Source of the DNA: a virus
Taxonomy: Duplodnaviria > Caudoviricetes
Virus record (IMG/VR): IMGVR_UViG_3300020365_000001
Strand: one strand, 5' to 3'
Length of the DNA stretch: 64,000 bases
Shown here: positions 2 through 34,231 of the stretch, one piece after another
Numbering within the stretch: position 1 is the stretch's first letter
Layout of the letters: each line of letters opens with the position of its first letter
Made by a program: the position numbers and the translations under genes
The notes under the pieces: generated by a model
Database searches by the model: none
Seen by the model: only the letters and a program-made list of their open reading frames with translations
Told to the model about the DNA's origin: nothing

Positions 2-565
2 GTGGTCCTTGTACAACCTATAGAACATATCACAATCCATGAGCATAGTCAACTCCTCATCAAAGTAGATGCCCAGGTTGTTACGGACGGCAAGGATGGA
101 AGGGGAACTCAGGGTGTTGACACCTTCCAACAATTTGCTGTTCCACACAGGAGTCTTAGGATTGTAATGAGTCTTACCATCATCCAGAGTATGAGCAAAT
201 CCTGTGACTGCCCACTCAACTTTAGGTTCTAGAAAAGCATTGATCAACTCTGCATTGAGATTCCTAGTAAGAATCATATCGTCAGAGAAGATGATCTTTA
301 GAATGCCTCGGTCTGCCAACCGCATAGCAGAGTTGGTATTGGCAGAAATATTTCCTCGGTCATCTTCATTGCGAACGTAATTGATCTCAAAAAGATCATC
401 ATACTCTTCGCATGCCTGCAAGACTTTGTTAGAGGAACCATGATCAGACACCCACACATTGAAATCCATGTCTGTCTGTAGAGACAGGGCATGAAAAATA
501 TCAAACAAATACTGCTGGCACTTTGGATTTTTATCGTGCGTCGGGATGCAATAACTTACAGACAT
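2..565 (-). CDS. Glycosyltransferase family 2-like protein, 3' end outside the window
   Basis: Hand-translated from ATG 565 (TAATG overlap): MSVSYCIPTHDKN...VWVSDHGS...KIIFSDD; GT-A N-terminus with a DD motif. Not in the ORF track. Confidence 0.75.
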   Translation of the reverse strand, partial: MSVSYCIPTHDKNPKCQQYLFDIFHALSLQTDMDFNVWVSDHGSSNKVLQACEEYDDLFEINYVRNEDDRGNISANTNSAMRLADRGILKIIFSDDMILTRNLNAELINAFLEPKVEWAVTGFAHTLDDGKTHYNPKTPVWNSKLLEGVNTLSSPSILAVRNNLGIYFDEELTMLMDCDMFYRLYKDH

Positions 566-1353
566 TAGCGAAGATCGCTCATAATTTTTCTAGTGAGGCG
601 TGGAACCACATCGTTGTCACTATGGAATTGCTTTGCAATCTCATAGTTCTCTTCGATAGCATCCTTTCTCCAATCATACTTGTCTGCATCCAGATGTTTT
701 AGGATCAGTTCAAGTTCTTCCATATCATGGAAGACAATTACTCCGTCCATATTGAACCAGTCTCCTAGGTTAGGACAACCATAGTAGATGGGAACCGTCT
801 TTGATGCAAAGCAATCAATGACCTTCTCAGTAAAGTAGTTTCTCTGTCGAGAGTTCTCTACTGCGATATGGAACTTAGCATTCTCGAAGAAATCATTTCT
901 CCTCTCATGGAAGGGAGGAGATTTATGTGCATAATACTGGAGTCCATTTGAAACGTCAACATTTTTGAGCATTTCAAAAATTTCCAACCGCATACGGTGA
1001 CCCACAGTCTGATTCTTTTCACTGGTCACAAAGGTAACGTTGTTACCCTTGTCAAGAATCAAATCCTTGAAGTCCAACCAACTAGATCCCCACTCAAAGA
1101 GTTCGGCCTGTGGATATTTCTCTAGGATTTTTTCAGTGAACGTGTAGATCTTGTCGAACTGATACGCACTACGGAGTGCACCCTCAGTCACTGTAGGTAA
1201 GATAGAATATGGTTCTGCCAGGAACAGGATTTTATAATCCGCCCGCACATCATAATCTAAGTTATCGATCGAGATGCTTACACTTTTATCACCCAGGTCA
1301 AGATTCTTATCTTGCCATGGGTTCCACCACAGAGGATAATATTTTACTGTCAT
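565..1353 (-). CDS. GT10 (alpha-1,3-fucosyltransferase)-like glycosyltransferase
   Basis: KFHIAVENS...YFTEKVIDCFASKTVPIYYG matches the GT10 donor-binding motif. Confidence 0.75.
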   Translation of the reverse strand: MTVKYYPLWWNPWQDKNLDLGDKSVSISIDNLDYDVRADYKILFLAEPYSILPTVTEGALRSAYQFDKIYTFTEKILEKYPQAELFEWGSSWLDFKDLILDKGNNVTFVTSEKNQTVGHRMRLEIFEMLKNVDVSNGLQYYAHKSPPFHERRNDFFENAKFHIAVENSRQRNYFTEKVIDCFASKTVPIYYGCPNLGDWFNMDGVIVFHDMEELELILKHLDADKYDWRKDAIEENYEIAKQFHSDNDVVPRLTRKIMSDLR

Positions 1354-2021
1354 CGTATGTCTTGGAAATGATAATGAAAACCGAAGGTCTCAATACCTTC
1401 ATGCTCTGGGCACTCTACCTCTTTAGAGAACCTAGCGGCAACTTCCACTGGTGCAAAGACGCATCCTTGCTCCTCAAAAATATGCCGGTTGTGGACACAA
1501 ATGTTGCCGTCCTCATTATATAGTCCGGCATTCATATGCTTATAGAAGTCTCCCTGATTGACTTCCCAGGGTACAGTTACACGCGAGGGGACCTGTAGTA
1601 ACTTTCTGGAACGTAAGGAAAATCCCCCATTCCCAACCCGTTGGTTCTTACCCCAGGGGTCGAGGAAGGCATTTGGATCGTCTCTCCAGGGGGCACCGAT
1701 GTAGTCGTACTGTAACCACGAACTATCCCAAAGCCAAGGTCGAATAACAAAACCGTCAGGATGGATAAGGAGGCAATGCGTGGACTGAATATGATTGATA
1801 AGGTTATATATACAATAAAAATTGAAATCATTGATGCTTTGAATTGGATAGGTTTCCTCATACTGTGCTTGGTCGCAGAGACCTTCTGGTCTCCCCTTGC
1901 TGCCAAGAAATTTGACAGCACCCCATTCAATAGACTCACATGATTTATTTACCGCATAGACAGCTTCAGGAATGTCAACATCTGCTAGCATAAGCAGCGT
2001 GACTTCAGGAATTTTTAGCAC
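1350..2021 (-). CDS. DUF5672-type putative glycosyltransferase
   Basis: YDYIGAPW and VGNGGFSLRS motifs. Confidence 0.75.
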   Translation of the reverse strand: MLKIPEVTLLMLADVDIPEAVYAVNKSCESIEWGAVKFLGSKGRPEGLCDQAQYEETYPIQSINDFNFYCIYNLINHIQSTHCLLIHPDGFVIRPWLWDSSWLQYDYIGAPWRDDPNAFLDPWGKNQRVGNGGFSLRSRKLLQVPSRVTVPWEVNQGDFYKHMNAGLYNEDGNICVHNRHIFEEQGCVFAPVEVAARFSKEVECPEHEGIETFGFHYHFQDIR

Positions 2022-2922
2022 GTTGCACCGCTCGGTTGAATACTGGGTATAAGTCTAGCAGATTTATGTCGATATTTCTAGCCCTGTCATATAAGTCTTC
2101 GGCATCGAACAGCAGGGTCTTATTGATCTTACCAAAGTCATCAACCCATAGGACCGGGTAGTCTTTATATAATTCTTGCAGGTACTCATCCTTCAGCATG
2201 ATAGGAACACGCTTCAGGTACAGCACCTCCCAGTTCCTATGACAGTCCACAGCATTACCCTGCGGACAGATCATGAACTTATGGTCTTGTAGTTCCCTGA
2301 TATACTCTCGGTATCCTTGTCGCTGTCCGACTGTAGCGTACGAGATTCCACTAAACATCTCACGGATGTTGCCACGGACACTGAGGTTAGTGTGCTCTGA
2401 GTGATTGATGTACAGAAGTTTTCTGGGTCTAGGATCTTCTTCCATTGCTTCCAACAGAAGAGTGTGTCTATGATCTTCTTCATGTAGTTTCCTGCCGACA
2501 CCATAAGGAAAAGAATAAAGTTTCTCTTTGAATCCTATTGCGTTTGCTGCAAAGATACCCAGCACATTGTCTGGAATATCTATGTCCTCTTCTACAGGAG
2601 TGTCCTCATTATTGCAAAAAATTATGAACTTCTTGTCAAGGGAAGCACATAATTTTAGCAGGTCATTCTTCTTCAGTAGGTCATCAACCCACTTCTGATC
2701 ATTAGCATTATTGCATACGATCTTTCTATTATATAATCTAATGTTATCAATAAAGAGAGTCATGATCTCCTTATCAGTCTTAGACACAAGGTCAAGAAAC
2801 TCTTTGTTCTTTTTGCTGGCGACTTTCATGAAAGACCCATGCACTTGACCTATGACCCCTGCCTGATCTCCAAACGTATAGTCACAATGGTTTGCTACTC
2901 CAGGTCCGTGGATCAATTTCAT
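2005..2922 (-). CDS. Exostosin/GT47-like glycosyltransferase
   Basis: KFMICPQGNAVDCHRNWEVLYLKRVPI motif. Confidence 0.65.
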   Translation of the reverse strand: MKLIHGPGVANHCDYTFGDQAGVIGQVHGSFMKVASKKNKEFLDLVSKTDKEIMTLFIDNIRLYNRKIVCNNANDQKWVDDLLKKNDLLKLCASLDKKFIIFCNNEDTPVEEDIDIPDNVLGIFAANAIGFKEKLYSFPYGVGRKLHEEDHRHTLLLEAMEEDPRPRKLLYINHSEHTNLSVRGNIREMFSGISYATVGQRQGYREYIRELQDHKFMICPQGNAVDCHRNWEVLYLKRVPIMLKDEYLQELYKDYPVLWVDDFGKINKTLLFDAEDLYDRARNIDINLLDLYPVFNRAVQRAKNS

Positions 2923-3767
2923 AGTGCTTTCACAAACTTCTTCAGTTTACGATTCTTCTGAGACCGGACATACTTAGGGAAGGTCTCATCAATCTCTACA
3001 ACAGTTGGTTGATAGAGATATGTTCTACCATATGGGTCCAGGTTCTGCTCGATCCTATCCTCCATGCTGGAACGGAACTCTTCCAAGTTGTTTTCTTGGT
3101 GCTCATAGGCATCCATCTTCTGACGCACAGTGTCAGCATCACCAAAGAAACTCCAGTGCCATGATGCATTGGCAAGTTTGTATGCATCCTGGTGTGACTG
3201 ACGGAGTTTGTCAACACTCATACTCTTCAGTGTCTTGAAGTCACACACTCGTGTGCCCATCCACTGCTCTTCACACTTCACATTGAGGTAGTAATAGAAC
3301 AGAGGACCTGTCAAGACATAGTGATGGTTAGGATCGAACCACTCATCCATACACTTCAGTGCTTCAGGGTTCGCGATCTCGTCAGCATCACTTGTAAGGA
3401 TGATGTCGTCGTCCTCTGCCTTATCTAACAGACCATAAATTGCACTGTCCTTATGAAAGCATGCCCGCTGGTATGGCAGTGGCAGTTGATAGATGTTCTC
3501 TTCCAACATGCTCCTGTGATAAGGAATGTCAGAATAGTATGCCTCAAAGGTTTTGTTATCGTCGATGGTGACGTGGTGGATAATTTTATCCTCCCACTTC
3601 TTGAACCGCTTACGATTCTCTTGGAAGAAAAGTGGTTTGGGTTTACCAGTAAAGGTAATGTTTGCCTCATTGATAACAAAATAGTCCACCGAATCTCCGA
3701 GGATGTTCATCCTCAGTTCCAGTAGATCTAGTTCATTATAAAAAGTAAATACGTCGAAGATTTTCAT
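2919..3767 (-). CDS. GT17-like beta-1,4-N-acetylglucosaminyltransferase
   Basis: FYNELDLLELR, FTGKPKPL, SDADEI and WHWSF motifs. Confidence 0.8.
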   Translation of the reverse strand: MKIFDVFTFYNELDLLELRMNILGDSVDYFVINEANITFTGKPKPLFFQENRKRFKKWEDKIIHHVTIDDNKTFEAYYSDIPYHRSMLEENIYQLPLPYQRACFHKDSAIYGLLDKAEDDDIILTSDADEIANPEALKCMDEWFDPNHHYVLTGPLFYYYLNVKCEEQWMGTRVCDFKTLKSMSVDKLRQSHQDAYKLANASWHWSFFGDADTVRQKMDAYEHQENNLEEFRSSMEDRIEQNLDPYGRTYLYQPTVVEIDETFPKYVRSQKNRKLKKFVKAL

Positions 3768-4306
3768 GGACGATAATTGATGTTCAAGGTGAATCTAACA
3801 CCAGTAGTTGGAGAAGAACTGGAATGATATTGCTTTCCGTCAAAAGTAACCATCTTACCTCGTTCAGGAGACTCTCTATGAATAACATTTTGATCTCCAT
3901 CAAAGAAGAATGTATCGCCGTCAGCATCATTGGGATAATATAATCCTACAATGTGTGGGCGGTCATCATCTACATGTGAGTTGTGTGGAACACCGAATGC
4001 TTCTGGTCTTGGATATTGTAAGGTCATGTGTGACCTAATCATTGGGTTGTTAGGCATCCCAATCTCTTGACCAATAGAGTTCCAAGGGAACTCGCGAAAA
4101 TATGGTGAGATGTTTCCATCTACACTCAGCAAAGTAGAACTGAAGTATGGATTCATCACCGTCCGTAGAGGATGATCACGGTTTCCATAAGCACAGTCGT
4201 CAAAGTAATAATATGGTAGTTTCTTACACAGGTTTTCAATCTGTGCTACTAACCTATTACTAAGTTTATGCCTTGTAAGAAAAGAGGAGTTCTCTTTGCT
4301 CATCAC
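3764..4306 (-). CDS. 2OG-Fe(II) oxygenase-like protein
   Basis: HVD...LYYPNDADGDT...FDGKQYHSS...R facial-triad pattern; start uncertain. Confidence 0.7.
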   Translation of the reverse strand: MMSKENSSFLTRHKLSNRLVAQIENLCKKLPYYYFDDCAYGNRDHPLRTVMNPYFSSTLLSVDGNISPYFREFPWNSIGQEIGMPNNPMIRSHMTLQYPRPEAFGVPHNSHVDDDRPHIVGLYYPNDADGDTFFFDGDQNVIHRESPERGKMVTFDGKQYHSSSSPTTGVRFTLNINYRP

Positions 4307-5039
4307 TGTTGGTCCATTCTCCAGGTTTGATGTAGTTATCTAACACCATCATGTTGATAGTGATGTCAGTATTATACAGCATCTGATAGTTTAGATGCTC
4401 CATTATATGTAGATTAGTACAGTAGATGTTCTCTACTGTGTTGCTACACAACGCCGCGGCCATTGCAAACGTTCCTACACCAGAAGTCGCAAGATGTTTT
4501 GCATTCAACAGGGTAGCAAAGTCTTCCTCAACAGTCTTAGATTGAACAGTAACCTTTGGGTTCCATGCCAACTCTTTGACAAGAGGATTATGTGTTGTAT
4601 CCTCAGTAACTAAGATACACTTGTCGAATTGTTCCAACAGTGCATCATAAAAACAAAAAGGATTAGGGACATATTGATCAGGATTAGTAACCCTTTGGTC
4701 AAAAACATCTCCACTCCTAAGATGCATAACGAGAGTGTCAGGATCAACATCCACTCTAGGGAGTTGTAGTCTAGGGCGAACATACGTCTTACAGAATGAA
4801 CGCATCTGCGTATAACAAACGCCCTTATCGATCGGGACTTCTTTGTACGGACCATCCCAGTAGAAAAACTTTCCGGAAGCATCGACTACGTTGTCTCCAA
4901 AACTACATGAAAACTTCTGAATAATATCATGCTCAAGGTTGTTCTCAAAACTAGTCTTGTACGCTTGAGCACTCATCAACCCATTAGCAACCTGCTGAAT
5001 GTTGTTGCCTAAACGTCCATACCAATGAGATAGTTTCAT
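4266..5039 (-). CDS. GT11 (alpha-1,2-fucosyltransferase)-like glycosyltransferase
   Basis: GRLGNNIQQ and HLRSGD motifs, C-terminal GTF. Confidence 0.6.
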   Translation of the reverse strand: MKLSHWYGRLGNNIQQVANGLMSAQAYKTSFENNLEHDIIQKFSCSFGDNVVDASGKFFYWDGPYKEVPIDKGVCYTQMRSFCKTYVRPRLQLPRVDVDPDTLVMHLRSGDVFDQRVTNPDQYVPNPFCFYDALLEQFDKCILVTEDTTHNPLVKELAWNPKVTVQSKTVEEDFATLLNAKHLATSGVGTFAMAAALCSNTVENIYCTNLHIMEHLNYQMLYNTDITINMMVLDNYIKPGEWTNSDEQRELLFSYKA

Positions 5040-5692
5040 ACAAAGATGTTACGTGCCTCTTGATCAACACACTCAAAGGGTTTCCATACAGATTCTTTGA
5101 CAACCTTAGGATCTACCCACCAATCTTCATAAGGATTCTCTCCGTTACAGACACTGGCACACACCAGTTGATACCCAAGACCTTCCAGGAACTGACGTGA
5201 GTGGTCACGAATGGTGTCACCATCCTTGTATGAGTCATGCTCAAAGGTGATGACGCTGGCACGATACTTATCGTGGGGGAATGCTTTCAGTGCTTTGAAA
5301 GTAATTTGAGGTGGTTCACAGTCAACGGTAAAGTAATCTACACGTCCCTGCCATTTCTCTTTGGCGATAGCAGCTTCATAGTCGAAGGTGGTAGCGTCCG
5401 CCTCATAACAATGGTTCTGCCTAGACATATCTCCATTGAAAACCTCACACATAGACTTCTCAATCTCTACAGAGAACCCACGCCAAGCAAATGCAGTCTC
5501 TAGAAGAAAAGTATTACTCATATTCTTGGGGTGGTTAGCACCAACCTCAACATACTTTCCTTTAGTCTTTCCTTTCAGCATAGAAAGAACAAAAAGATCT
5601 TGATATGCCTGCGAATAGTTTTGAAAGACTTTACTTTGACCCTTGAAGGGATGCTTCAAGGTATCTTTCTCATAGTTATAGAGTGTGTTCAT
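5036..5692 (-). CDS. FkbM-like SAM-dependent methyltransferase
   Basis: YSQAYQD, YVEVGA, SNTFLLE, DYFTVDCE, ITFEHD, EDWWV. Confidence 0.75.
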   Translation of the reverse strand: MNTLYNYEKDTLKHPFKGQSKVFQNYSQAYQDLFVLSMLKGKTKGKYVEVGANHPKNMSNTFLLETAFAWRGFSVEIEKSMCEVFNGDMSRQNHCYEADATTFDYEAAIAKEKWQGRVDYFTVDCEPPQITFKALKAFPHDKYRASVITFEHDSYKDGDTIRDHSRQFLEGLGYQLVCASVCNGENPYEDWWVDPKVVKESVWKPFECVDQEARNIFV

Positions 5693-6783
5693 TCGTACTC
5701 GCTGGTAAAATCTTTAGCAATTTGAAGCATGATCCAGTTGTAGGTCTTCCTCATACCTTCTTCCAAAGTCTGACTGTAATCCCATCCAAGTTTTTCTCGG
5801 ATGAGATCATTGTTAGAGTTGCGACCACGTACACCAGTGTGAGGAACGTCTACGTGGTTCTTACCAATTTCTTTGTTGGCAACCTTAGCAGCAATCTCTA
5901 CCAGTTGGTTGATGGTTACCATCTCTTCAGAACCAATGTTGACCGGTCCTTCAAAGTCTGATTGCATCAAACGCCAAGTTGCTTCGATGCACTCGTCGAT
6001 GTAGAGGAAGGACCTGGTTTGGCATCCATCCCCCCACACTTCGATTGAGTCCCCTGTGCTGGCGTAGGCGACTTTTCTACAGATGGCAGCGGGTGCCTTC
6101 TCCTTTCCACCGAACCAGGTACCATCGGGACCAAAGATATTGTGATACCTAGCGATACGAACAGGAACATTATAATTCCTCGCGAAAGCCAGATAGATCC
6201 GTTCAGAGAAGAGTTTTTCCCATCCGTATTCGGAGTCTGGTGCTGCGGGGTATGCTGATTCTTCACGGCAATCGGGGTTATCAGGATCGAGCTGGTTATG
6301 CTCGGGGTACATGCAGGCAGAAGAACTATAGAAGATCTTCGTAGGGTTATCTAACTTGGGACGCTTTGCTTCAGTCCACTCTTTATCTACACCATCGAAG
6401 GTGAGGTTGAATGCATGAACTGCACCAAGAAGATTCAGGTTTATACTAGCAGAATTATGCATGATGTCAGCATCATGTTCGCCAGTGAAGATATAACCAG
6501 CACCACCCATGTCAGCAGCGAACTGATAGATCTCGTCGAACGGACGGATGTACTGATAGGGAACGTCATGATAGTAGTTCCCCTGCTCACCTTTGTACTG
6601 AATTACACGTTCTACAAAGTTTTGTTCTCGCAGATCACCTACGATGAACTCATCCGCTGCCGTGTCAGAGAAGTCAGGATGCTTGAGGTCAACGCCACGG
6701 ACCCAATACCCTTCCGCCTTCAGACGTTTGACCATGTGGCTGCCGATAAATCCACCGGCACCTAATACTAGTGCTGTCTTCAT
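5689..6783 (-). CDS. NAD-dependent epimerase, GDP-mannose 3,5-epimerase-like
   Basis: GAGGFIG, AADMGGAG, SSACMYP, YGWEK, EKAPAAICRK, GVRGRNS. Confidence 0.85.
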   Translation of the reverse strand: MKTALVLGAGGFIGSHMVKRLKAEGYWVRGVDLKHPDFSDTAADEFIVGDLREQNFVERVIQYKGEQGNYYHDVPYQYIRPFDEIYQFAADMGGAGYIFTGEHDADIMHNSASINLNLLGAVHAFNLTFDGVDKEWTEAKRPKLDNPTKIFYSSSACMYPEHNQLDPDNPDCREESAYPAAPDSEYGWEKLFSERIYLAFARNYNVPVRIARYHNIFGPDGTWFGGKEKAPAAICRKVAYASTGDSIEVWGDGCQTRSFLYIDECIEATWRLMQSDFEGPVNIGSEEMVTINQLVEIAAKVANKEIGKNHVDVPHTGVRGRNSNNDLIREKLGWDYSQTLEEGMRKTYNWIMLQIAKDFTSEYE

Positions 6784-8084
6784 TGGTAATACTCAGTACA
6801 GTAATTGCAAACAACTTCATCTATGTATTCTAGCATAGGTTCAGTAATAACGGGACTACATCCTACGAAAAATACATTATCCAACACTTTACATGCATTA
6901 GGATAATTAGTTGCAGGTTCAATGTGTCTATATGCAGGGTGCATCAGGATATTACCTGCAAAATAGTTCCTCGTTTGAACCTTATTGTCCTCTAAATATT
7001 TTACAAGTCGGTGTTTGTGTTCTTCACAAACGATGGGGACACCGAACCAACTGGTTTCTGCATGCTCTTTCTCTTCAATAACCCGAGCACCAGGGATCTT
7101 ACAGAAGATCTCATGGAGTCTAGTTTTGTTGCTACGACGGATGCGATGTATCTCGTCCTGCTTAGTCAACTGCACCAACCCAATAGACCCTTGCAGATCG
7201 GCAGGTTTGAGGTTGTATCCTTGAACGCCAAAGACATACTTATGATCGACATCCTGGTCGTACCCTTCCAACCAGCGATCAAACCTGTTTCCACAGACAC
7301 CGTTGGCCAGTTTGTTCTGGGATCCTACACAATAACAACCTCGCCCCCACCAGGCAAAAGACCTGGCAATCTGGACGACCTCTTCAATGTTAGAGGAGAC
7401 CATCCCGCCTTCAATCGTGCTGATATGGTGCGCTGGATAGAAAGAACACGACGCTGCGACGGCATGTTTGGTAAGGAGCTCACCTCGCCACTTGGAACCG
7501 AGCGAATCACAGTTGTCAGCGATATACCTCAGGTTATTCCTATCAACAATGTCGAGGAACTTATCGAAATCATAGGGATTTCCCAGAACAGGAGAAGAAA
7601 AAAGCGCAACAGTTCTAGGACTGATCCGTTGTTCTAACTGTTCCAGATCCCAGTTGAGATCATCGTAGTTGATGTCAACAAAGACTGGTTTGAGTCCGTT
7701 CTGGATGATGGGATTGATAGTGGTGGGGAAACCACAGGTGCAGACGATAATCTCATCTCCATCGTGCCAATCAAAATACTTTTTGAGTGCAGCAATCATC
7801 ACCAGGTTGGCAGATGATCCACTGTTCACCATCACAGAGTGGTCAAACCCAAACTGTTTGGAGAATGCACGTTCAAATTTATTGACTTCCTCTCCAGCAG
7901 GCAACCACTTGCCCTGTAGCATGGTGGTGATGGCAGCAACGGGTTCCTTCTCATCCCAATAGGGACCAGAGTAGTACACATTGTCACCAGGTTCCCACCC
8001 CTTGTTTGCCATGAAGGGGAATAGTTTTTCTCCGTCTGCCTCTAGCGAAGCAACAAAATCCTCAACCTTACTCTTTACAGACAT
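6780..8084 (-). CDS. DegT/DnrJ family, CDP-4-keto-6-deoxyglucose 3-dehydrase (RfbH/DdhC E1)-like
   Basis: VNSGSSANL; SFYPAHHI with His at the usual PLP-Lys position; Cys cluster GCYC...C; DHKYVF. Confidence 0.85.
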   Translation of the reverse strand: MSVKSKVEDFVASLEADGEKLFPFMANKGWEPGDNVYYSGPYWDEKEPVAAITTMLQGKWLPAGEEVNKFERAFSKQFGFDHSVMVNSGSSANLVMIAALKKYFDWHDGDEIIVCTCGFPTTINPIIQNGLKPVFVDINYDDLNWDLEQLEQRISPRTVALFSSPVLGNPYDFDKFLDIVDRNNLRYIADNCDSLGSKWRGELLTKHAVAASCSFYPAHHISTIEGGMVSSNIEEVVQIARSFAWWGRGCYCVGSQNKLANGVCGNRFDRWLEGYDQDVDHKYVFGVQGYNLKPADLQGSIGLVQLTKQDEIHRIRRSNKTRLHEIFCKIPGARVIEEKEHAETSWFGVPIVCEEHKHRLVKYLEDNKVQTRNYFAGNILMHPAYRHIEPATNYPNACKVLDNVFFVGCSPVITEPMLEYIDEVVCNYCTEYYQ

Positions 8085-8929
8085 AACGATTCAACCATCT
8101 CACGGGTGTCCATACTAGGTTTGAAACCTAACGATTGTAGTTTACTGGTGTCCAGGTAAAAGTCCTGAGTCTGGACATCCTTATGAAACTTTGGTGGTTC
8201 GATACTATCTATATGGGATCTAGTACCAGTACAACCAGCAGCAATCTCAACGATCTCACCGATTGTTGTGGGTCTACCTGACCCGATATTATATGTGGTG
8301 TTCAGGTCACCATCATCAATCACCGTCTTGATGGCACGACAGACATCATCAACATGCATAACATCACGACGATGACTACCACCATCATAGAGGTTGATTG
8401 GTTTATGCTCTTTGAGTTGATTGATCATCCACATGATTGCATTCTTCTGCTTCGATGCTTTAGGATCATCACCCAAAACATTACACAAGCGAAGGATACG
8501 ATACTTCATCTTGTACACATCACAGAAAGACTTGATCAAGTCTTCTGCACACCTCTTGGTGATACTATAGAACCCAGTAGGATTGCATAGAGAATCCTCA
8601 AAGGCAGGGATAGGTCCACCTTTACCATACACAAACCAGGAAGAGATGAAGTTGAACTCAATGTCTTCTTTGCGACAATGCTCTAAGACATCACACAGGA
8701 CACGAAGGTTGGTGTCAACATCTAAACCAAGATTTTTGTGGACGTTATAGTTGTCCACTGTAGAGATCATGTAAAGGATCTTCTTAGATTGAGGTTTGTA
8801 TTCATCACGTTCCTGCACCAGCGTATCAGGATACATCTCAGCATACCTACCACCAACAAATCCAGGACCATAGAGTGTGACTGGACTATTGAATGACTTT
8901 ACACCATTCCCCATTTTTCTAAGTACCAT
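8075..8929 (-). CDS. NAD-dependent epimerase/dehydratase
   Basis: GPGFVG, SSWFVYG, YSITK (YxxxK), RDVMHVDDV. Confidence 0.8.
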   Translation of the reverse strand: MVLRKMGNGVKSFNSPVTLYGPGFVGGRYAEMYPDTLVQERDEYKPQSKKILYMISTVDNYNVHKNLGLDVDTNLRVLCDVLEHCRKEDIEFNFISSWFVYGKGGPIPAFEDSLCNPTGFYSITKRCAEDLIKSFCDVYKMKYRILRLCNVLGDDPKASKQKNAIMWMINQLKEHKPINLYDGGSHRRDVMHVDDVCRAIKTVIDDGDLNTTYNIGSGRPTTIGEIVEIAAGCTGTRSHIDSIEPPKFHKDVQTQDFYLDTSKLQSLGFKPSMDTREMVESLCL

Positions 8930-9846
8930 GATACAGTTTCGCGTAGTCCGTAATCAAAATCAGTAGTTGGTTTCCACCCAGTAGTTGCAGTTATTTTAGC
9001 ATGATCCATACCATACCGCTTGTCCTGCCCTGGTCTTTGGTCAGAAATACCAATGAGACCATAAGGTTTTTTCAAGAGGTCTAGAACTTTTTTAGAGACA
9101 TCAATATTTCTCATCTCACATGACCCACCAATGTTGAACTGATCATTGATGATGTTATTCTTTTCCAGAGACCAGATTGCTTCGCAATGATCTCTAACAT
9201 GCAACCAGTCACGAATCTGTTGACCACCACCATACATGAAGGTAGTGGTATCATTCATGGCACGGTGCACAAGTTTAGGTATTAGTTTCTCCTCGTGCTG
9301 ATGCCTACCATAGTTGTTACTACAGTTGGTAATCAGATACGGTAGATCATATGTGTTGTGCCAGGTCTTGACATAATGATCTGACGCTGCCTTGCTGGCA
9401 GAATATGGATTGCGTGGATCGTATGGTGTCTCTTCTGTAAACAGTTCTGTGTCATCATACTCCAAAGATCCATACACCTCATCAGTAGAGATGTGATGAA
9501 ACTTCTCAATGCCAATGTTCAACGAAGCATTGAGTAGATTGATAGTACCAATGACATTCGCCTCTAGGAATGGGCGATAGTTTGCAATACTATTGTCTAC
9601 GTGACTCTCTGCTGCAAAGTGCCAGATCTTTTTAGGTTTATACTTCTCAAACAGAAACAAGACGTGATCCTCATTAGAGATATCACACCACTCAAAAGCA
9701 AACTGCCTGCTCTTAGGTACGTACCCAAGATCACCAGCGTATGTCAGATTGTCTAGGACAACAATCGGTTCAGAAGTCTTCTTAGATAAGAAATGTAAGA
9801 AGTTACTGCCGATGAACCCGGCACCGCCGGTCACCATGTATGTCAT
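8899..9846 (-). CDS. rfbB: dTDP-glucose 4,6-dehydratase
   Basis: TGGAGFIGSN, AAESHVDNSI, STDEVYG, YSASKA, NCSNNYG. Confidence 0.9.
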   Translation of the reverse strand: MTYMVTGGAGFIGSNFLHFLSKKTSEPIVVLDNLTYAGDLGYVPKSRQFAFEWCDISNEDHVLFLFEKYKPKKIWHFAAESHVDNSIANYRPFLEANVIGTINLLNASLNIGIEKFHHISTDEVYGSLEYDDTELFTEETPYDPRNPYSASKAASDHYVKTWHNTYDLPYLITNCSNNYGRHQHEEKLIPKLVHRAMNDTTTFMYGGGQQIRDWLHVRDHCEAIWSLEKNNIINDQFNIGGSCEMRNIDVSKKVLDLLKKPYGLIGISDQRPGQDKRYGMDHAKITATTGWKPTTDFDYGLRETVSWYLEKWGMV

Positions 9847-10205
9847 ATTAGCATGTCTAGTAGGGGCATTTTTTGTGTACGACCATAATCATCTTCTAGT
9901 CGTACGATGTCACGTTCTTTACAGGTACCACGTTGAACCTCAAAGAACGTTAGTCCTTGATCATGTGCCTTTGCACGATGCCGCTGTTCAATGCCAATGG
10001 TAAAGGTAGAACCAGGATGGCATTCTACCTCACAGTTGCCCTGTGTAATGAGACCAGAACCTTCTATGACAATCCAGTGCTCTGTTCTATGTCTATGGAA
10101 TTGGAGAGAAAATCTTTGCCCTGGTTCGAGATGAATTTTCTTCACTAAGAAATCATCACCTCTTTCAAGTAATTCAAACCAACCCCAGGGTCGGTATTCT
10201 CTCAC
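9843..10205 (-). CDS. Mannose-6-phosphate isomerase type II cupin domain
   Basis: RPWG, SLQFHRHRTEHW, EVQRG, DIVRLEDDYGR. Confidence 0.9.
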   Translation of the reverse strand: MREYRPWGWFELLERGDDFLVKKIHLEPGQRFSLQFHRHRTEHWIVIEGSGLITQGNCEVECHPGSTFTIGIEQRHRAKAHDQGLTFFEVQRGTCKERDIVRLEDDYGRTQKMPLLDMLI

Positions 10206-29493: not shown

Positions 29494-29692
29494 TGATTTT
29501 TCGTAAGATCTCGGAATTATTATTTTGAACAAACACCATCAGTGGCGTCTGATACTGTTTATATTTATCTTGTGTCTGCAAGATGCAGTATAGAAACCTT
29601 TGAAAGTCTTCGATACGTTTCCTGTTTGTCATCCTACGTTTACCATAGTTCTCTGCGTAAACGTCGATAGCACTATCCAAAAAATCAATCAT
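29390..29692 (-). CDS. Hypothetical protein
   Basis: ATGA-coupled to the upstream gene; overlaps the downstream gene by about 100 nt. Confidence 0.5.
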   Translation of the reverse strand: MIDFLDSAIDVYAENYGKRRMTNRKRIEDFQRFLYCILQTQDKYKQYQTPLMVFVQNNNSEILRKISEKVLIFHNRSKDHQGIPGSTATGIGRGRSRRLV

Positions 29693-30618
29693 CGTGGGTC
29701 TCCTGATAGTTTCATAGCACCGGAAAATTTGTAGGACTTGAACTTGTAGCGTATGTTGAACAGTGCAGTGGACCCAGCGTTGACAGTGATACTGTTTTTA
29801 CCTGCCTTGACAAACGTGATGCGTTTCGTATTGATAGCATCCATTTTGCTGTTGGCAAGTGGGTCCATTCCAACAGCATTATAGCGTCCTTTCTCCCCGG
29901 ACCCTGTTATTTTGAGGTATGGTGGGTATGCATTTGTTGCATCTAACCAACTACTAATAAGATATTGCCTACGTTGCTGTTGACTGACGATGTTATTGAG
30001 TTTGGCAAAGAGTTGATCCCTACAATAAGTCTCAACCTCAGACCCCTTCTCATTCAAAATTTTGTAACGCTCATCACCTGACTCTTTCCACCTCCTCATC
30101 TGCAATGTTCTATTTGCCTTAGTCATTCTGGCAAAGTCAGGGTAGTCCTCTAGTGCTTCTTCCTCTGCTGCTGCAATATAACCAGCAAGATTCAAACCTA
30201 GATCAGCATCAACTGTGCCCACACCAGGGTTTTTGAAACCAACGTCACCGGAGATAGTTGACTTAGCAGACAGTCCTAAGAATCCTCCCATGGCATACTG
30301 AACAAGAATGTCTGCGGGAAACTTTGTTTGATTTACTTTCACTCCTACTATGGGAAGGAAATCAAATCCAGGTTTGGCAGTCCAGTAGACAGAATCTATA
30401 ATTGTACCATATCCTTTTCGTTCTGCCATCTTGGTAAACTCTTTTACCATTGCTTCAGCACGACCTATCTGATCTTTATACTCTTGATCAGACAATGCTG
30501 TCTTCTTTCTATTGAAAGTTTGTTCAGTTATACGATCAGGAAACTGATCTCCGTTCAACAAATAAGCACACCAAATTTCATTTACGTCCGCTAACCTGGT
30601 GTTGTCTCCTCTTGTCAT
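29689..30618 (-). CDS. Putative PD-(D/E)xK-like (PD...SxK) endonuclease
   Basis: NE helix (DVNEIW) and PADILV...GLSAK. Confidence 0.5.
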   Translation of the reverse strand: MTRGDNTRLADVNEIWCAYLLNGDQFPDRITEQTFNRKKTALSDQEYKDQIGRAEAMVKEFTKMAERKGYGTIIDSVYWTAKPGFDFLPIVGVKVNQTKFPADILVQYAMGGFLGLSAKSTISGDVGFKNPGVGTVDADLGLNLAGYIAAAEEEALEDYPDFARMTKANRTLQMRRWKESGDERYKILNEKGSEVETYCRDQLFAKLNNIVSQQQRRQYLISSWLDATNAYPPYLKITGSGEKGRYNAVGMDPLANSKMDAINTKRITFVKAGKNSITVNAGSTALFNIRYKFKSYKFSGAMKLSGDPR

Positions 30619-31775
30619 TACACCATAGTTTTAGTATCCTCATCTGTTATATATCCATTCCCATCCATACGTTCAACATCTGGAGTATTAGATCCAAAAG
30701 TTTTTTTGATGACTGCAATGTAATCATCATTGAGTTCCAAACCAGTGACTGTCTTTTGAAAATTTACTCCCTCCTTTGTGCGTTCTCTATTTGCAGAAGG
30801 AGTTTTTAGTTTATTGTCTCTATAGAATGCATCTCCATTGCTCTCATAGATGTATTTTTTTGATGCCCACTTATACTCCCGCAAATCTCGCCATGCACTA
30901 TTGGCAGTTTGATGAGTGATAGACCAACGTTGCCAGTTAGGAGTATCAAAGAATGCCCAAACGTTTTCCTCAGGTTCTACTGGGTGCAAATTATATTGCT
31001 TAGCACATCTTAGTGTAACGTACTGATACTTTGCCATAAAACTCCATGCCCAATGCCATTGCTTTAGATTTGGATTCTTTGTATTCAGTACCACCGAGAC
31101 GCACTTGTCAAGTATCTTGATATTTCTTTCAGGGGTATTCTCTCTAAAGCATTTTTCACGTTCTTCTTCATTGTATATAAAAACCCTACCCGTACCATAT
31201 ATTTGATCACCTACTTCACCAGTAACGAAAAAGTTATTTGGATCATTGACATATGGAGTAAGGCATTCATCTGGTTTATTGTTTGATCCAGAACAAATGT
31301 GAGAAGTCAGAGGAGAAGTAGGATCTATATCTGTATGAGCATGTTGAATGGGTGTTGCGAGACTGTGCTTCATAATATCCTTGTAACCAGTCTCACACTC
31401 GGCTATAGATCCAGCATCAAAGTGAACTTGAAAAGGAACTTCTGCTCTAATGAAAGCATATAACGCTACTGTGCTGTCAATTCCACCAGACCACAGTAGG
31501 TTTATTGTTCGGCCACGTGCTTTCTCTACCAGGATCTCAACAGCGTCTGCACACACCTCTTCCACGGTCATCTCCGTGAAGAAGTTATCAGGCATTGGTG
31601 ATATGATTTTATAATTACGCTTAGTCTTTAGTTTTCCAGCTCTACATACAAATCTGGTTTGATAATATCGATCAATATATAATTCATCTGGGTAAAAATT
31701 CTTTTCTATTAGTCTGGGGATACCATGGAAAGATCTAGGTAAATACTCCGCCCCCCAATGCCAGTCAGGATGCAT
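30618..31775 (-). CDS. PP-loop (adenine nucleotide alpha-hydrolase) protein, asparagine-synthase-C-like
   Basis: LLWSGGIDST, VTGEVGDQIYG, YKWASKKYI. Confidence 0.75.
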   Translation of the reverse strand: MHPDWHWGAEYLPRSFHGIPRLIEKNFYPDELYIDRYYQTRFVCRAGKLKTKRNYKIISPMPDNFFTEMTVEEVCADAVEILVEKARGRTINLLWSGGIDSTVALYAFIRAEVPFQVHFDAGSIAECETGYKDIMKHSLATPIQHAHTDIDPTSPLTSHICSGSNNKPDECLTPYVNDPNNFFVTGEVGDQIYGTGRVFIYNEEEREKCFRENTPERNIKILDKCVSVVLNTKNPNLKQWHWAWSFMAKYQYVTLRCAKQYNLHPVEPEENVWAFFDTPNWQRWSITHQTANSAWRDLREYKWASKKYIYESNGDAFYRDNKLKTPSANRERTKEGVNFQKTVTGLELNDDYIAVIKKTFGSNTPDVERMDGNGYITDEDTKTMV

Positions 31776-31792
31776 AATATATCGATAGGTAC

Positions 31793-31819
31793 AAAAAAAC
31801 CGGGGTATGACCCCCGGTT
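31793..31819 (-). terminator. Intrinsic terminator after the TRAP binding-protein gene
   Basis: AACCGGGG-GTCATA-CCCCGGTT followed by a T-run. Confidence 0.85.
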
Positions 31820-31844
31820 ATTTATTAGGATGTGAGCGATAAGA

Positions 31845-32789
31845 TCACTTGGTGTTCTTGATACTATCAATCAAACCATCAGAGAACATGTCTGAGAACT
31901 GATCATACAGGTATGCAGTTGCATCCTTGAAACGACCACGCTCTGCGTCAGACATGGTGACAACAGTGATGTCTTCTTCTTTACACTGAGATTTCACAAC
32001 ATCGATGTCTTCAACAGACCAGACACGCTCAGCACGTGCTGCGTCGAAGGACGCTGCTTCGATTTTTCCTTTCAACTCTTCGTCAAGAGTTTCCCAGAAG
32101 TCGCTTGCAACGATGATGGAAGTAAGGAAGAGACTATGCTCTGCGTCATTGATGGTATCCATGCACTCGTTTTGCTTCAGACCGAAGAAACGAGGATAGG
32201 TAGACTCACCACCAACAATCTCACCATCTTGGACACCCTCATTGATCTGCTCAAGTTCAATGGGGACGGGGATTGCACCAACTGCTTTCAGGGTTTCCTG
32301 AGCAATGGGTGATTTGTTACAACGAAGGCGGACGCCTTCAAAATCTTCAATTGTGTGCAGTTCCGTGTTAGCAGGGATCATGCGGAAACCACCAGAATAG
32401 GTGAAGGCAAGACCCTGAACATTGGAATCCTTATTTAGTCCGTCGAGGAGAGATTTTCCAACCTCACCTTCCAGGACATTTTTCGCGTGGTCGTGATCAC
32501 GGAACAAGAAAGGCATATCAAGTGCCCACATGTCCCGGTGATGCTTCCTACCAAGTGTAGACGTATACATCTGCGACATCTCTACCTCACCATCCTCCAT
32601 GAGTTGGAGGAGGTCATGTTTGGTGATGGTAGCACCGCCCTTGTACTTATCTGAATACTCAGAAAGGGTCAGAATTTCAACGTTTAGTTCTCCAGGAGCA
32701 CACGCTTCCATGGAAGCTTTGAAACGCTTTGCTGCTCTGAGGAACAATTCAATCGGTTCATGGGCTAGAACCCAGCGAATTGTTTTCAT
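31845..32789 (-). CDS. TRAP transporter substrate-binding protein (DctP family), no signal peptide
   Basis: LDMPFLFRDHDHA, GGFR, IEDFEGVRLR, GAIPVPI, VQDGEIVGGE. Confidence 0.85.
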   Translation of the reverse strand: MKTIRWVLAHEPIELFLRAAKRFKASMEACAPGELNVEILTLSEYSDKYKGGATITKHDLLQLMEDGEVEMSQMYTSTLGRKHHRDMWALDMPFLFRDHDHAKNVLEGEVGKSLLDGLNKDSNVQGLAFTYSGGFRMIPANTELHTIEDFEGVRLRCNKSPIAQETLKAVGAIPVPIELEQINEGVQDGEIVGGESTYPRFFGLKQNECMDTINDAEHSLFLTSIIVASDFWETLDEELKGKIEAASFDAARAERVWSVEDIDVVKSQCKEEDITVVTMSDAERGRFKDATAYLYDQFSDMFSDGLIDSIKNTK

Positions 32790-32814
32790 CGGATATTATA
32801 CAGGATTACAGATG

Positions 32815-32822
32815 TATTTATA
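32815..32822 (-). promoter_or_regulatory. T4-type late promoter TATAAATA
   Basis: Exact consensus about 25 nt upstream of the DctP-like ATG. Confidence 0.8.
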
Positions 32823-32831
32823 AGTATGTGA

Positions 32832-33086
32832 TCAGATATACACGCGATCACCATCGGCAGTCGTACGACGCTGCCAGTCGTTACGGTTCCACAGACGTTC
32901 GTGGAGGATATACAGAGTGGAGTTGATGACAAGTGCCATCAGACCGATAGTCAGACCCTTCCAGGGGTTACCAGAGACGATCCAACCAATCACAGAGTTG
33001 GTCACCATCATCCAGGAACGCCAGGTAACAGCTTTGGTCACGGTACGAGGAAAACGCTCGAACCACTTAGGGGATGCAAAGGACAT
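32832..33086 (-). CDS. DUF2061-like small membrane protein
   Basis: RTVTKAVTWR...LYILHERLW motifs around two hydrophobic segments. Confidence 0.8.
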   Translation of the reverse strand: MSFASPKWFERFPRTVTKAVTWRSWMMVTNSVIGWIVSGNPWKGLTIGLMALVINSTLYILHERLWNRNDWQRRTTADGDRVYI

Positions 33087-33153: not shown

Positions 33154-33840
33154 CTACACCCAGTATTTTACTATCGGATGAACTTGTTCGTCAAGTTCAT
33201 GATTCTTTGGATACTGGTGGAGCAGAGCAATTGATTTATTTGCTCTTAGTGTGAAACTATTCAATTGGTTAGGAGACTCACCATCTCTATATGAGTAGAT
33301 ACAGTGAGGAAGTTGAGTTCTTTTTACTTTTTCATTATGATAAAAGTCGTCTGTTCCTGCGTACTTCGCCACAAATTCTCGTGGAGACTGCATGAAATAT
33401 TCGTAAACTCGCGTTGCGTCTCTCCAAACAATTACTGATGAATTATATAGTGATTTGCGTGGGTTACGCATTTTGAATGGGACGCCCTTCCAAGTAGAGT
33501 AGACTAATGCGAACTCTGCATCATGATCAAGAACCTCAGTTATATCACCATGTATGATGACATCTAGATCAAAAAAGATCTTTCTTTCGTAGGTAGAAAT
33601 ATCAGGATGGACAAACATTTGGATCTTCCACCATGCTGCCCACCAGTTCTCCCACGTTAGGTATTCGGTTACGTCAATAGGGATGACGTTTACCTCTGAG
33701 TTGATGTCTGATGCGTCGTCTGTGAAGCAATAAAAGGGTGCATCGGTTTGGAGACGCACCATATTATAAAGCTTGTTTACGTACTGTGCATCAAATTTGT
33801 CACCGATCTTGATGCAGGTGATGCAGTAATCAGATGTCAC
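33154..33840 (-). CDS. Glycosyltransferase-like (DxD) protein
   Basis: YVNKLYNMV, FYCFTDD, FFDLDVII, YNSSV; GTG start inferred. Confidence 0.7.
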   Translation of the reverse strand: MTSDYCITCIKIGDKFDAQYVNKLYNMVRLQTDAPFYCFTDDASDINSEVNVIPIDVTEYLTWENWWAAWWKIQMFVHPDISTYERKIFFDLDVIIHGDITEVLDHDAEFALVYSTWKGVPFKMRNPRKSLYNSSVIVWRDATRVYEYFMQSPREFVAKYAGTDDFYHNEKVKRTQLPHCIYSYRDGESPNQLNSFTLRANKSIALLHQYPKNHELDEQVHPIVKYWV

Positions 33841-34231
33841 CTTCTTGACGATTCTCCGAATAGAACTCGCTGAACGTACCCTCAGGGAAACGTGCTTCGA
33901 GTTTCTTGACATTCATATCTAGCACTTCATTCATGTCCACCTCCAGTGCCATGCATGCTTGTGCCACATACCACATGATGTCACCCAGTTCTCGCTTTAG
34001 ATGGAACAGGTTCTCTTCGTTGGCAGGTTTTCCTTGGAAGATCATCTTCTTTACGATCTCTGTGAACTCACCTGCTTCAGCAGACATACCAACAGAAGCG
34101 GTAAGAAGGCGTTGCACTGCAATCTGCCCACCAAGTTCTTGCAGACGGTAGATGAAGGCATCAGAATCCTGGGATTCTTTGCTTGTCACTCCGTTGACGA
34201 AGCGTTGATAGTTTGTGAAATTTACTCCCAT
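33830..34231 (-). CDS. mazG: MazG-like nucleotide pyrophosphohydrolase
   Basis: AEAGEFTEIVKK, ELGDIMWY. Confidence 0.9.
   Translation of the reverse strand: MGVNFTNYQRFVNGVTSKESQDSDAFIYRLQELGGQIAVQRLLTASVGMSAEAGEFTEIVKKMIFQGKPANEENLFHLKRELGDIMWYVAQACMALEVDMNEVLDMNVKKLEARFPEGTFSEFYSENRQEGDI

Follow-up and report, generated by a model that had tools for sequence, protein, structure and literature searches.

The DNA analysed here, a window of 64 kb from IMG/VR virus record IMGVR_UViG_3300020365_000001, comes from a T4-like cyanomyovirus, a marine cyanophage, and represents part of its genome. The gp41 helicase of the window shares 69-74% identity with its counterparts in S-PRM1 and S-CAM9, two phages of Synechococcus, and in marine single-cell virus records, and genes for MazG and a 2-oxoglutarate/Fe(II) oxygenase adjoin it. 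On the minus strand, downstream of gp41-MazG and a glycosyltransferase-like gene, three genes follow one another. The first encodes a small membrane protein of 84 residues belonging to DUF2061 (32832-33086), the second a DctP-family solute-binding protein of the TRAP type (for tripartite ATP-independent periplasmic) of 314 residues (31845-32789), and the third a PP-loop protein of 385 residues (30618-31775), which by its motifs and predicted fold resembles the amide synthetases of the AsnB class. The original prediction, which singled out the DctP gene, had placed it between a small DUF2061-like membrane gene and a gene for an SGGIDS ATP-pyrophosphatase-type enzyme, and both neighbors are borne out by the matches described below.

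The DctP protein matches PF03480 with 138.6 bits (cut-off 23.4, E 3.4e-40) over profile positions 13-283 of 286, and NF037995 with 102.9 (cut-off 50); its score against TIGR00787, 117.6, is below the cut-off of 175 for that model. The AlphaFold model, with a predicted local distance difference test score (pLDDT) of 94, superposes on the solved structure 7BBR with a Z of 35.7 and a root-mean-square deviation of 2.2 Å, with 299 of the 314 residues aligned. More than 40 solved periplasmic DctP entries match the model at Z 33-36, with deviations of approximately 2.3 Å over approximately 299 residues. By this superposition of the predicted model, the two-domain hinged fold of the family is present. 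Residue 1 of the model aligns to residues ~23-36 of the solved periplasmic chains, which is to say to their mature N-terminus. The protein has no leader, because an in-frame TAA stop two codons upstream of the ATG blocks any extension of the reading frame; an upstream start that might supply a signal peptide was looked for and is excluded by this stop. The first 45 residues hold no hydrophobic stretch (the maximum of the 19-residue Kyte-Doolittle average over the whole protein is 0.77), no cysteine before residue 30, hence no lipobox, and no twin-arginine motif. The leader is likewise absent in all of the approximately 120 close homologues, from phages and bacteria. The claim that the protein begins without signal peptide or lipobox was therefore correct.

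In 16 homologues from phages and bacteria, the arginines R136 and R156 are invariant, as are 77 other positions. The two arginines are spaced as R127 and R147 are in SiaP, and we take R156 to be the equivalent of the SiaP R147. R156 aligns with the arginine of the K-I-R motif in 4N8Y and 4XFE. The spacing corresponds as well to that of R156 and R177 in IseP (PMC11668362). The conserved arginine of DctP proteins binds carboxylates (PMC4646407, PMC11668362), and this role has been described for Arg147 of SiaP (PMC4646407). The leaderless subfamily is unusually conserved, with a mean column identity of 64% between phages and bacteria.

A T4-type late-promoter-like TATAAATA lies at 32815-32822 on the minus strand, 26 nt upstream of the DctP ATG. 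It is the sole exact copy of TATAAATA in the 64 kb, a count that taken alone is no more than chance (79 of 100 shuffles hold at least one). Of 30 distinct upstream regions from related loci, however, 29 have an ATAAATA at a distance of 24-53 nt from the DctP ATG, the thirtieth reading CTAAATA, and the spacer around the conserved motif has diverged among the related loci. Within the window, five of the seven minus-strand copies of ATAAATA lie 24-30 nt upstream of the start of an open reading frame, and a sixth lies 44 nt upstream of one. An intrinsic terminator (31798-31819, minus strand; an 8-bp stem with six GC pairs, then a T run) follows DctP, and other cyanophage-type loci have terminators with quite different stems at the same place. 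Both the exact late-promoter motif and the terminator that had been assigned to the gene are thus found, and since the promoter motif is conserved and the gene has its own terminator, DctP is probably a monocistronic late unit, as far as the sequence allows this to be read. A second ATAAATA (31819..31825, minus strand) lies 44 nt upstream of the start of the PP-loop gene and borders directly on the 5' arm of the terminator, as is also seen in loci L001-L004. It may be a late promoter in its own right; transcripts initiated there would be missing part of the hairpin and might continue into the ligase gene, which may constitute a promoter-within-terminator arrangement.

The PP-loop protein carries the motif WSGGIDST at residues 95-102, in which S96-G-G-I-D-S-T102 is invariant across 21 homologues. 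A second motif, TGEVGDQIYG at residues 186-195 (TGExGDQxFG in the family), contains the invariant D190, and by eye this segment resembles the GEGSDE segment of AsnB, of which we take it to be the probable counterpart. A lysine-rich C-terminal block holds the invariant residues K302, K306, K322 and K324. No Pfam model (PF00733 included) and no NCBIfam model matched the protein at E 0.01 or better, no PDB sequence matched it at E 10 or better, and the sole profile match is a weak one to a PHROG named 'QueC-like', over the PP-loop. The predicted structure (pLDDT 84, from an alignment of 21 sequences) was compared with solved structures. The best PDB matches in Foldseek are beta-lactam synthetase and asparagine synthetases, at E ~5e-4. 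In VIA-align the model reaches a Z of 13.3 with TsnB9 (7YLZ), 13.1 with 1MC1 and 13.0 with 1CT9, with further values down to 12.3 that include human ASNS. Carbapenam synthetase gives a Z of 10-11, and the values for GMP and NAD synthetases, LarE, TtuA and PAPS reductases are all 7.9 or lower. The modeled fold is that of the synthetase domain of the AsnB class, which it resembles more closely than it does other PP-loop enzymes. Only some 65-85 residues stand ahead of the PP-loop domain (the sequence opens with MHPDW, and the N-termini of the family are short and variable). With so short a segment before the domain, the protein is without a glutaminase domain: no N-terminal nucleophile (Ntn) glutaminase domain with a catalytic cysteine was found in it.

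A search with the profile of this family against 1.84 billion representatives returned 2,009 clusters at E<=0.001, of which 1,027 had E<=1e-30. The family thus amounts to approximately 2,000 clusters (at 50% identity), and none of the curated Pfam or NCBIfam models recognized it here. The ESM Atlas clusters nearest to the window protein are 88-100% viral and mostly unnamed, and its best matches in BFVD are proteins of uncultured phages, some of them automatically named 'Asparagine synthase'. Pfam scans of ten long family members disclosed one fusion to leucine-rich repeats and no fusion to a binding protein. In two other phage lineages, without any DctP, PP-loop homologues of 576 and 340 residues adjoin a Cupin_2 gene (L079, 7293-9731; L081, 8001-9622). 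The blocks around these homologues look structural, with an SU10-type adaptor and a lysozyme-domain protein in L079 and L080. A further contig with a PP-loop homologue carries a gene for a TctC-type binding protein, then one for a 381-residue protein of no assigned function, then a radical-SAM gene (L083, 13572-15597), and two more radical-SAM genes lie nearer to the homologue.

The DUF2061 protein matches PF09834 with 49.7 bits (cut-off 23.1, E 5e-13). It has two hydrophobic segments, the second strong (peak 1.94, residues 45-61) and the first weaker, and both termini are basic. DUF2061 genes are among the iron-limitation or Fur-linked genes of Caulobacter and Shewanella (PMC3751524, PMC12442407), namely CC_0155 of Caulobacter crescentus (13-fold) and SO_4740 of Shewanella oneidensis, and we regard this as only a lead.

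A scan of IMG/VR contigs produced 52 loci with DctP at 69-100% identity. Adjacency was counted at those loci with enough flank, 48 for DUF2061 and 45 for the PP-loop gene. DUF2061 is directly upstream of DctP on the same strand in 48 of 48, and the PP-loop gene comes immediately downstream of DctP in 41 of 45. In L027, L028 and L052 it stands upstream of the cassette instead. It was not found in L022, where just 383 nt of upstream flank are available; L015, a related locus, carries it upstream. The original prediction had been staked beforehand on the co-occurrence of the three genes, and the co-occurrence proved very strong. The trio moves as a block, as a mobile cassette, because it is found in at least four different surroundings. 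One is the position after gp41-MazG and the glycosyltransferase-like gene, as in the window. A second is between the large terminase gene (Terminase_6N/6C) and a 136-residue gene that is taken, by its position, as the small terminase. The others are on either side of a block that we take, by the T4 gene order, to be putative T4-like neck genes. Among GenBank phages there is no close DNA or protein relative of the cassette, and the matches obtained there were spurious, at ~25% identity.

Pairwise ratios of nonsynonymous to synonymous substitution rates (dN/dS), at unsaturated dS, are 0.06-0.14 for DctP, 0.04-0.13 for DUF2061 and 0.16-0.41 for the PP-loop gene. The values indicate purifying selection on all three genes, and they rule out a pseudogene or a decaying remnant. 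DctP evolves much more slowly than the ligase, with identities of 69-100% in the same cassettes that give 26-98% for the ligase. The DctP and PP-loop genes overlap by 4 nt in a second phage lineage, lineage B (for example IMGVR_UViG_3300027801_000011). In some phages the ligase is present as two paralogues, or an additional DctP, divergent and likewise leaderless, is encoded. The second DctP paralogue of L046 (8538-9599; also in L047-L049) has 353 residues, is 23% identical and lies just upstream of DUF2061. In L027 (3943-5743; also in L028), a 259-residue PP-loop family gene and three tandem paralogues of ~100 residues precede DUF2061-DctP.

The closest non-viral homologues of the DctP protein, at 52-58% identity, come from metagenome-assembled genomes (MAGs) of Bdellovibrionota, Burkholderiales, Xanthobacteraceae and further Proteobacteria, and none from a cyanobacterium turned up among the 185,579 species genomes scanned. 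The bacterial proteins are leaderless and start ..K(I/V)RWVLAHEP... Relatives at a greater distance, in Bacteriovoracaceae, have signal peptides; the leaderless form would seem to be a derived subfamily. At the loci of Pseudobdellovibrio and Bdellovibrio, DctP is accompanied by one or two PP-loop homologues and a conserved 227-residue protein of no assigned function. The same Bdellovibrionota clusters contain a BKACE enzyme, an SDR and acyl-AMP ligases, and sometimes a carrier protein with an MBOAT, or fatty-acid desaturases. In one Pseudobdellovibrio MAG (JBAQKN010000021.1; L053, 6126-10343), the PP-loop/DctP pair is followed by a 78-residue carrier-protein-like gene (..WDSLHHV..) and an acyl-AMP ligase gene, with an MBOAT gene downstream on the opposite strand, a Dlt-like acylation set. 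One Burkholderiales MAG has DctP followed by DUF2061, then a 233-residue homologue of the 227-residue protein, and then the PP-loop gene. A PP-loop homologue is present in four of five bacterial carrier genomes, and three of the five are without any DctM.

The presence of a TRAP permease was considered separately. The original prediction saw no DctQ or DctM in the window, and tblastn with the open reading frames of nine TRAP loci agreed, as it matched the DctP gene alone. DctM was not found either in four records of the lineage of the window, which are 38-70% complete. To this extent the expectation that no dctQM lies elsewhere holds for the lineage of the window. Lineage B carries the trio together with DctM and a TAXI-type protein. 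In IMGVR_UViG_3300027801_000011 (L021, 14199-16461) these are a DctM of 433 residues (PF06808, 192 bits) and an exported TAXI-type protein of 322 residues (PF16868). The pair adjoins the large terminase gene, approximately 3 kb from the trio and on the other strand, and is also found in L007, L008, L012, L018 and L019. Together the two would form a TRAP/TAXI transporter encoded by the phage, with no DctQ in evidence.

Based on the collective evidence, our preferred interpretation, in which we place about even confidence, is that the DctP protein is a cytoplasmic binder of carboxylates that is functionally coupled to an AsnB-type amide ligase, with the DUF2061 protein as a constant third partner. 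We are confident of one part of it, that DctP is not a classical exported TRAP receptor. Its functional tie to the ligase is likely. The interpretation is the simplest one to cover the phage and the bacterial data together, and three observations favor it: the arginine pair holds carboxylate and the class of the ligase adenylates carboxylates; nearly all testable phage loci have the genes linked; and carriers can be without any TRAP permease. In outline, DctP would stay in the cytoplasm, having no leader, and would capture an organic acid via R136 and R156. It would then present the acid to the PP-loop enzyme, or buffer it for the enzyme. The PP-loop enzyme would adenylate the carboxyl group, and ammonia or another amine would resolve the acyl-adenylate to give an amide, or a lactam. 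The DUF2061 protein may anchor the two at the membrane's inner face or link them to some process in the membrane. A direct hand-off between DctP and the ligase is a tentative element of this scheme, and its most specific form is more speculative still. This form would be a two-component amide synthetase of a new kind, in which a glutaminase-less AsnB-like ligase has cytoplasmic DctP as the subunit that captures its substrate. Tethered by DUF2061, the synthetase would make an amide metabolite late in the infection of marine picocyanobacteria; the same machinery would operate in the biosynthetic clusters of Bdellovibrionota.

The original prediction had likewise proposed a ligand binder, cytoplasmic or virion-associated and possibly linked to the substrate or product of the PP-loop enzyme, rather than a transporter. 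The first half of that proposal, in its cytoplasmic form, stands well with the absence of a leader, the absence of DctQM from the window and of DctM from the four related records, the tight linkage to the PP-loop and DUF2061 genes, and the occurrence of leaderless bacterial relatives beside PP-loop genes in genomes that have no DctM. The second half stands less firmly, since with the DctM and TAXI proteins of lineage B transport is possible for the pathway as a whole.

Several observations, that of lineage B among them, weigh against our preferred interpretation. Hydropathy and alignment, rather than a dedicated predictor, are the basis on which the leader was judged absent, and more distant relatives of the protein (39-43% identity, in Bacteriovoracaceae) do have signal peptides. 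The site equivalent to Asn187 of SiaP is a serine in the phage protein (E195-S196). PP-loop homologues occur in other phages without any DctP, in structural modules adjoining a cupin gene, and the ligase therefore needs no DctP in general. In six other bacterial loci (Bdellovibrionota and Gammaproteobacteria), the leaderless DctP follows an MFS transporter and a 200-residue protein of no assigned function, with no PP-loop gene nearby, and one genome with this MFS-type arrangement has no PP-loop homologue at all. Finally, longer fused forms of DctP were searched for and none was found, so there is no natural DctP-ligase fusion to point to; this is weak evidence.

The lineage B and MFS observations bring up the alternative that fares best, although we consider it rather unlikely. 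In this alternative, cytoplasmic DctP would dock on DUF2061 or on another membrane protein and there, on the inner side of a transporter encoded by host or phage, either receive an organic acid or hand it over, and the ligase would be a separable downstream step. DUF2061 is indeed the most constant neighbor of DctP, at 48 of 48 loci, the leaderless DctP comes directly after the MFS transporter gene in the six bacterial loci, and in lineage B the DctM (192 bits) and the exported TAXI protein lie 3 kb from the trio. Yet the window and the four related phage records contain no transporter gene, and three bacterial carriers are without DctM. A literature search found no system with a binding protein on the cytoplasmic side, and no TRAP, MFS or other system is known to use one.

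The expression signals and the slow evolution of DctP could be accommodated by a stand-alone cytoplasmic protein, either a sequestering protein or a sensor, produced in large amounts late in infection so as to absorb a metabolite or signal of the host, with only a loose genetic link to the ligase. The late-promoter motif and strong terminator of its own in cyanophage-type loci suggest a monocistronic and probably highly expressed gene, and DctP evolves far more slowly than the ligase (69-100% against 26-98% identity). The nearly universal co-occurrence with the ligase in phages argues against such independence, as does the same co-occurrence in bacteria, where the timing of infection is irrelevant, and so does the translational coupling of the two genes in lineage B. 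A late timing would also be wrong for a sponge of anti-defense signals. We consider this alternative unlikely. The signal sponge that had been suggested in the original prediction, in particular, is a poor fit with the conserved late promoter and the biosynthesis-like bacterial clusters.

The structural setting of some PP-loop homologues raises the prospect of a late system that modifies proteins or the virion, in which the AsnB-like enzyme would amidate or cross-link carboxyl groups on macromolecules of the phage or the host and DctP would supply or recognize the carboxylate. There is precedent for such chemistry, as lasso-peptide cyclases are AsnB-like enzymes that act on peptide carboxylates. 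In two other phage lineages the homologues stand in structural blocks beside a cupin, a fusion to leucine-rich repeats is known from one member of the family, and the cassette is always in late regions, with a late-promoter motif. Against it, no target is evident, the bacterial homologues are in clusters of small-molecule or lipid type with BKACE, SDR and acyl-AMP ligases, and DctP folds close around small free ligands and not around polymers (PMC4646407, PMC11668362). We hold this alternative to be improbable. An ordinary exported auxiliary transport gene like phage pstS, reaching the periplasm by a non-classical route and feeding a TRAP permease of the host, would agree with the intact DctP fold and its ligand-binding arginine pair and with the signal peptides of the more distant bacterial relatives, but is very improbable given the absence of the leader in all of the approximately 120 close homologues, the stop two codons upstream, the bacterial carriers without DctM and the lack of a cyanobacterial homologue among the 185,579 species genomes.

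The genes that flank the trio in the window do not appear to belong to its core. The upstream glycosyltransferase-like gene (33154..33912, minus strand; phrog_1962, E 1e-10) is seen only in the gp41-MazG context and is context only; it is not homologous to the bacterial gene of 227 or 233 residues that precedes the ligase. Downstream, a 309-residue gene of no known family (29689..30618, minus strand) has its ATG overlapping the stop codon of the PP-loop gene (TAATG, 30618-30622, minus strand). It is an optional accessory, restricted to loci of the window type and the L046 type, and its product has no match in Pfam, PHROG or NCBIfam. Elsewhere a 273-residue gene to which it is unrelated substitutes for it; this gene, phrog_22045, occupies the coupled position downstream of the ligase in other phages. 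Farther away, the minus strand of the window at 565-10205 holds a sugar-nucleotide and glycan run, with a mannose-6-phosphate isomerase-type cupin, a GDP-mannose 4,6-dehydratase-like gene, two further NAD epimerase/dehydratases, a DegT-type aminotransferase, DUF5672, and GT10-, GT17- and GT47-like glycosyltransferases. No link between this run and the cassette was found. A connection of the cassette to the metabolism of nonulosonic or uronic acids was considered, since the nearest solved relatives of DctP bind sugar acids and the window has this sugar-nucleotide cluster. It is unsupported: the cluster belongs to the GDP-mannose, aminotransferase and glycosyltransferase type and contains no enzymes for acid sugars, and the ligand classes of DctP proteins cannot be told apart by structural similarity, as all Z values are tied.

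The similarities and differences to known systems are of note. With the DctP-family solute-binding proteins (SiaP, DctP, the galacturonate binder 4N8Y and DctPAm 7BBR) the phage protein shares the full two-domain fold, at Z ~35, and both arginines, and its sequence matches the mature domain from the first residue. It differs in the absence of a signal peptide and of an adjacent DctQM, in its PP-loop ligase and DUF2061 partners, and in the serine found where an asparagine helps to hold the carboxylate. The PP-loop enzyme has the synthetase fold and the SGGxDS motif in common with the AsnB class (AsnB 1CT9, human ASNS, beta-lactam synthetase 1MC1, carbapenam synthetase and TsnB9 7YLZ), whereas it has neither an Ntn glutaminase domain nor a match to PF00733, and at 9-15% identity it belongs to a separate family. 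The pstS gene of cyanophages is similarly a phage-borne gene for a solute-binding protein in a T4-like cyanophage. PstS retains its leader and works with the ABC permease of the host, whereas the phage DctP is leaderless, has no evident permease and is accompanied by an enzyme. Folds of solute-binding proteins have been recruited to the cytoplasm as enzymes or as ligand-binding modules in THI5/NMT1, MqnA/MqnD, HisG and the effector domains of LysR. None of these is of the DctP family, and the phage DctP is without evident catalytic residues. Literature searches on DUF2061, on cyanophage DctP and on leaderless TRAP binding proteins returned no description of such a system, of the ligase family or of the pairing. 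The parts are of known folds, and it is their arrangement and the probable cytoplasmic use of the DctP protein that are new.

The cassette is common in ocean virus contigs, with at least 52 loci in IMG/VR and many more proteins in metagenomes, and both the ligand of DctP and the product of the ligase are accessible by ordinary biochemistry. TRAP binding proteins are the textbook extracytoplasmic receptors, and a subfamily that is without export, tied to an ATP-dependent amide ligase and more highly conserved than the usual binding proteins would extend the uses of the fold. Together with its late-promoter motif, the cassette points to what may be an unrecognized phage-directed metabolism in globally important cyanobacteria.

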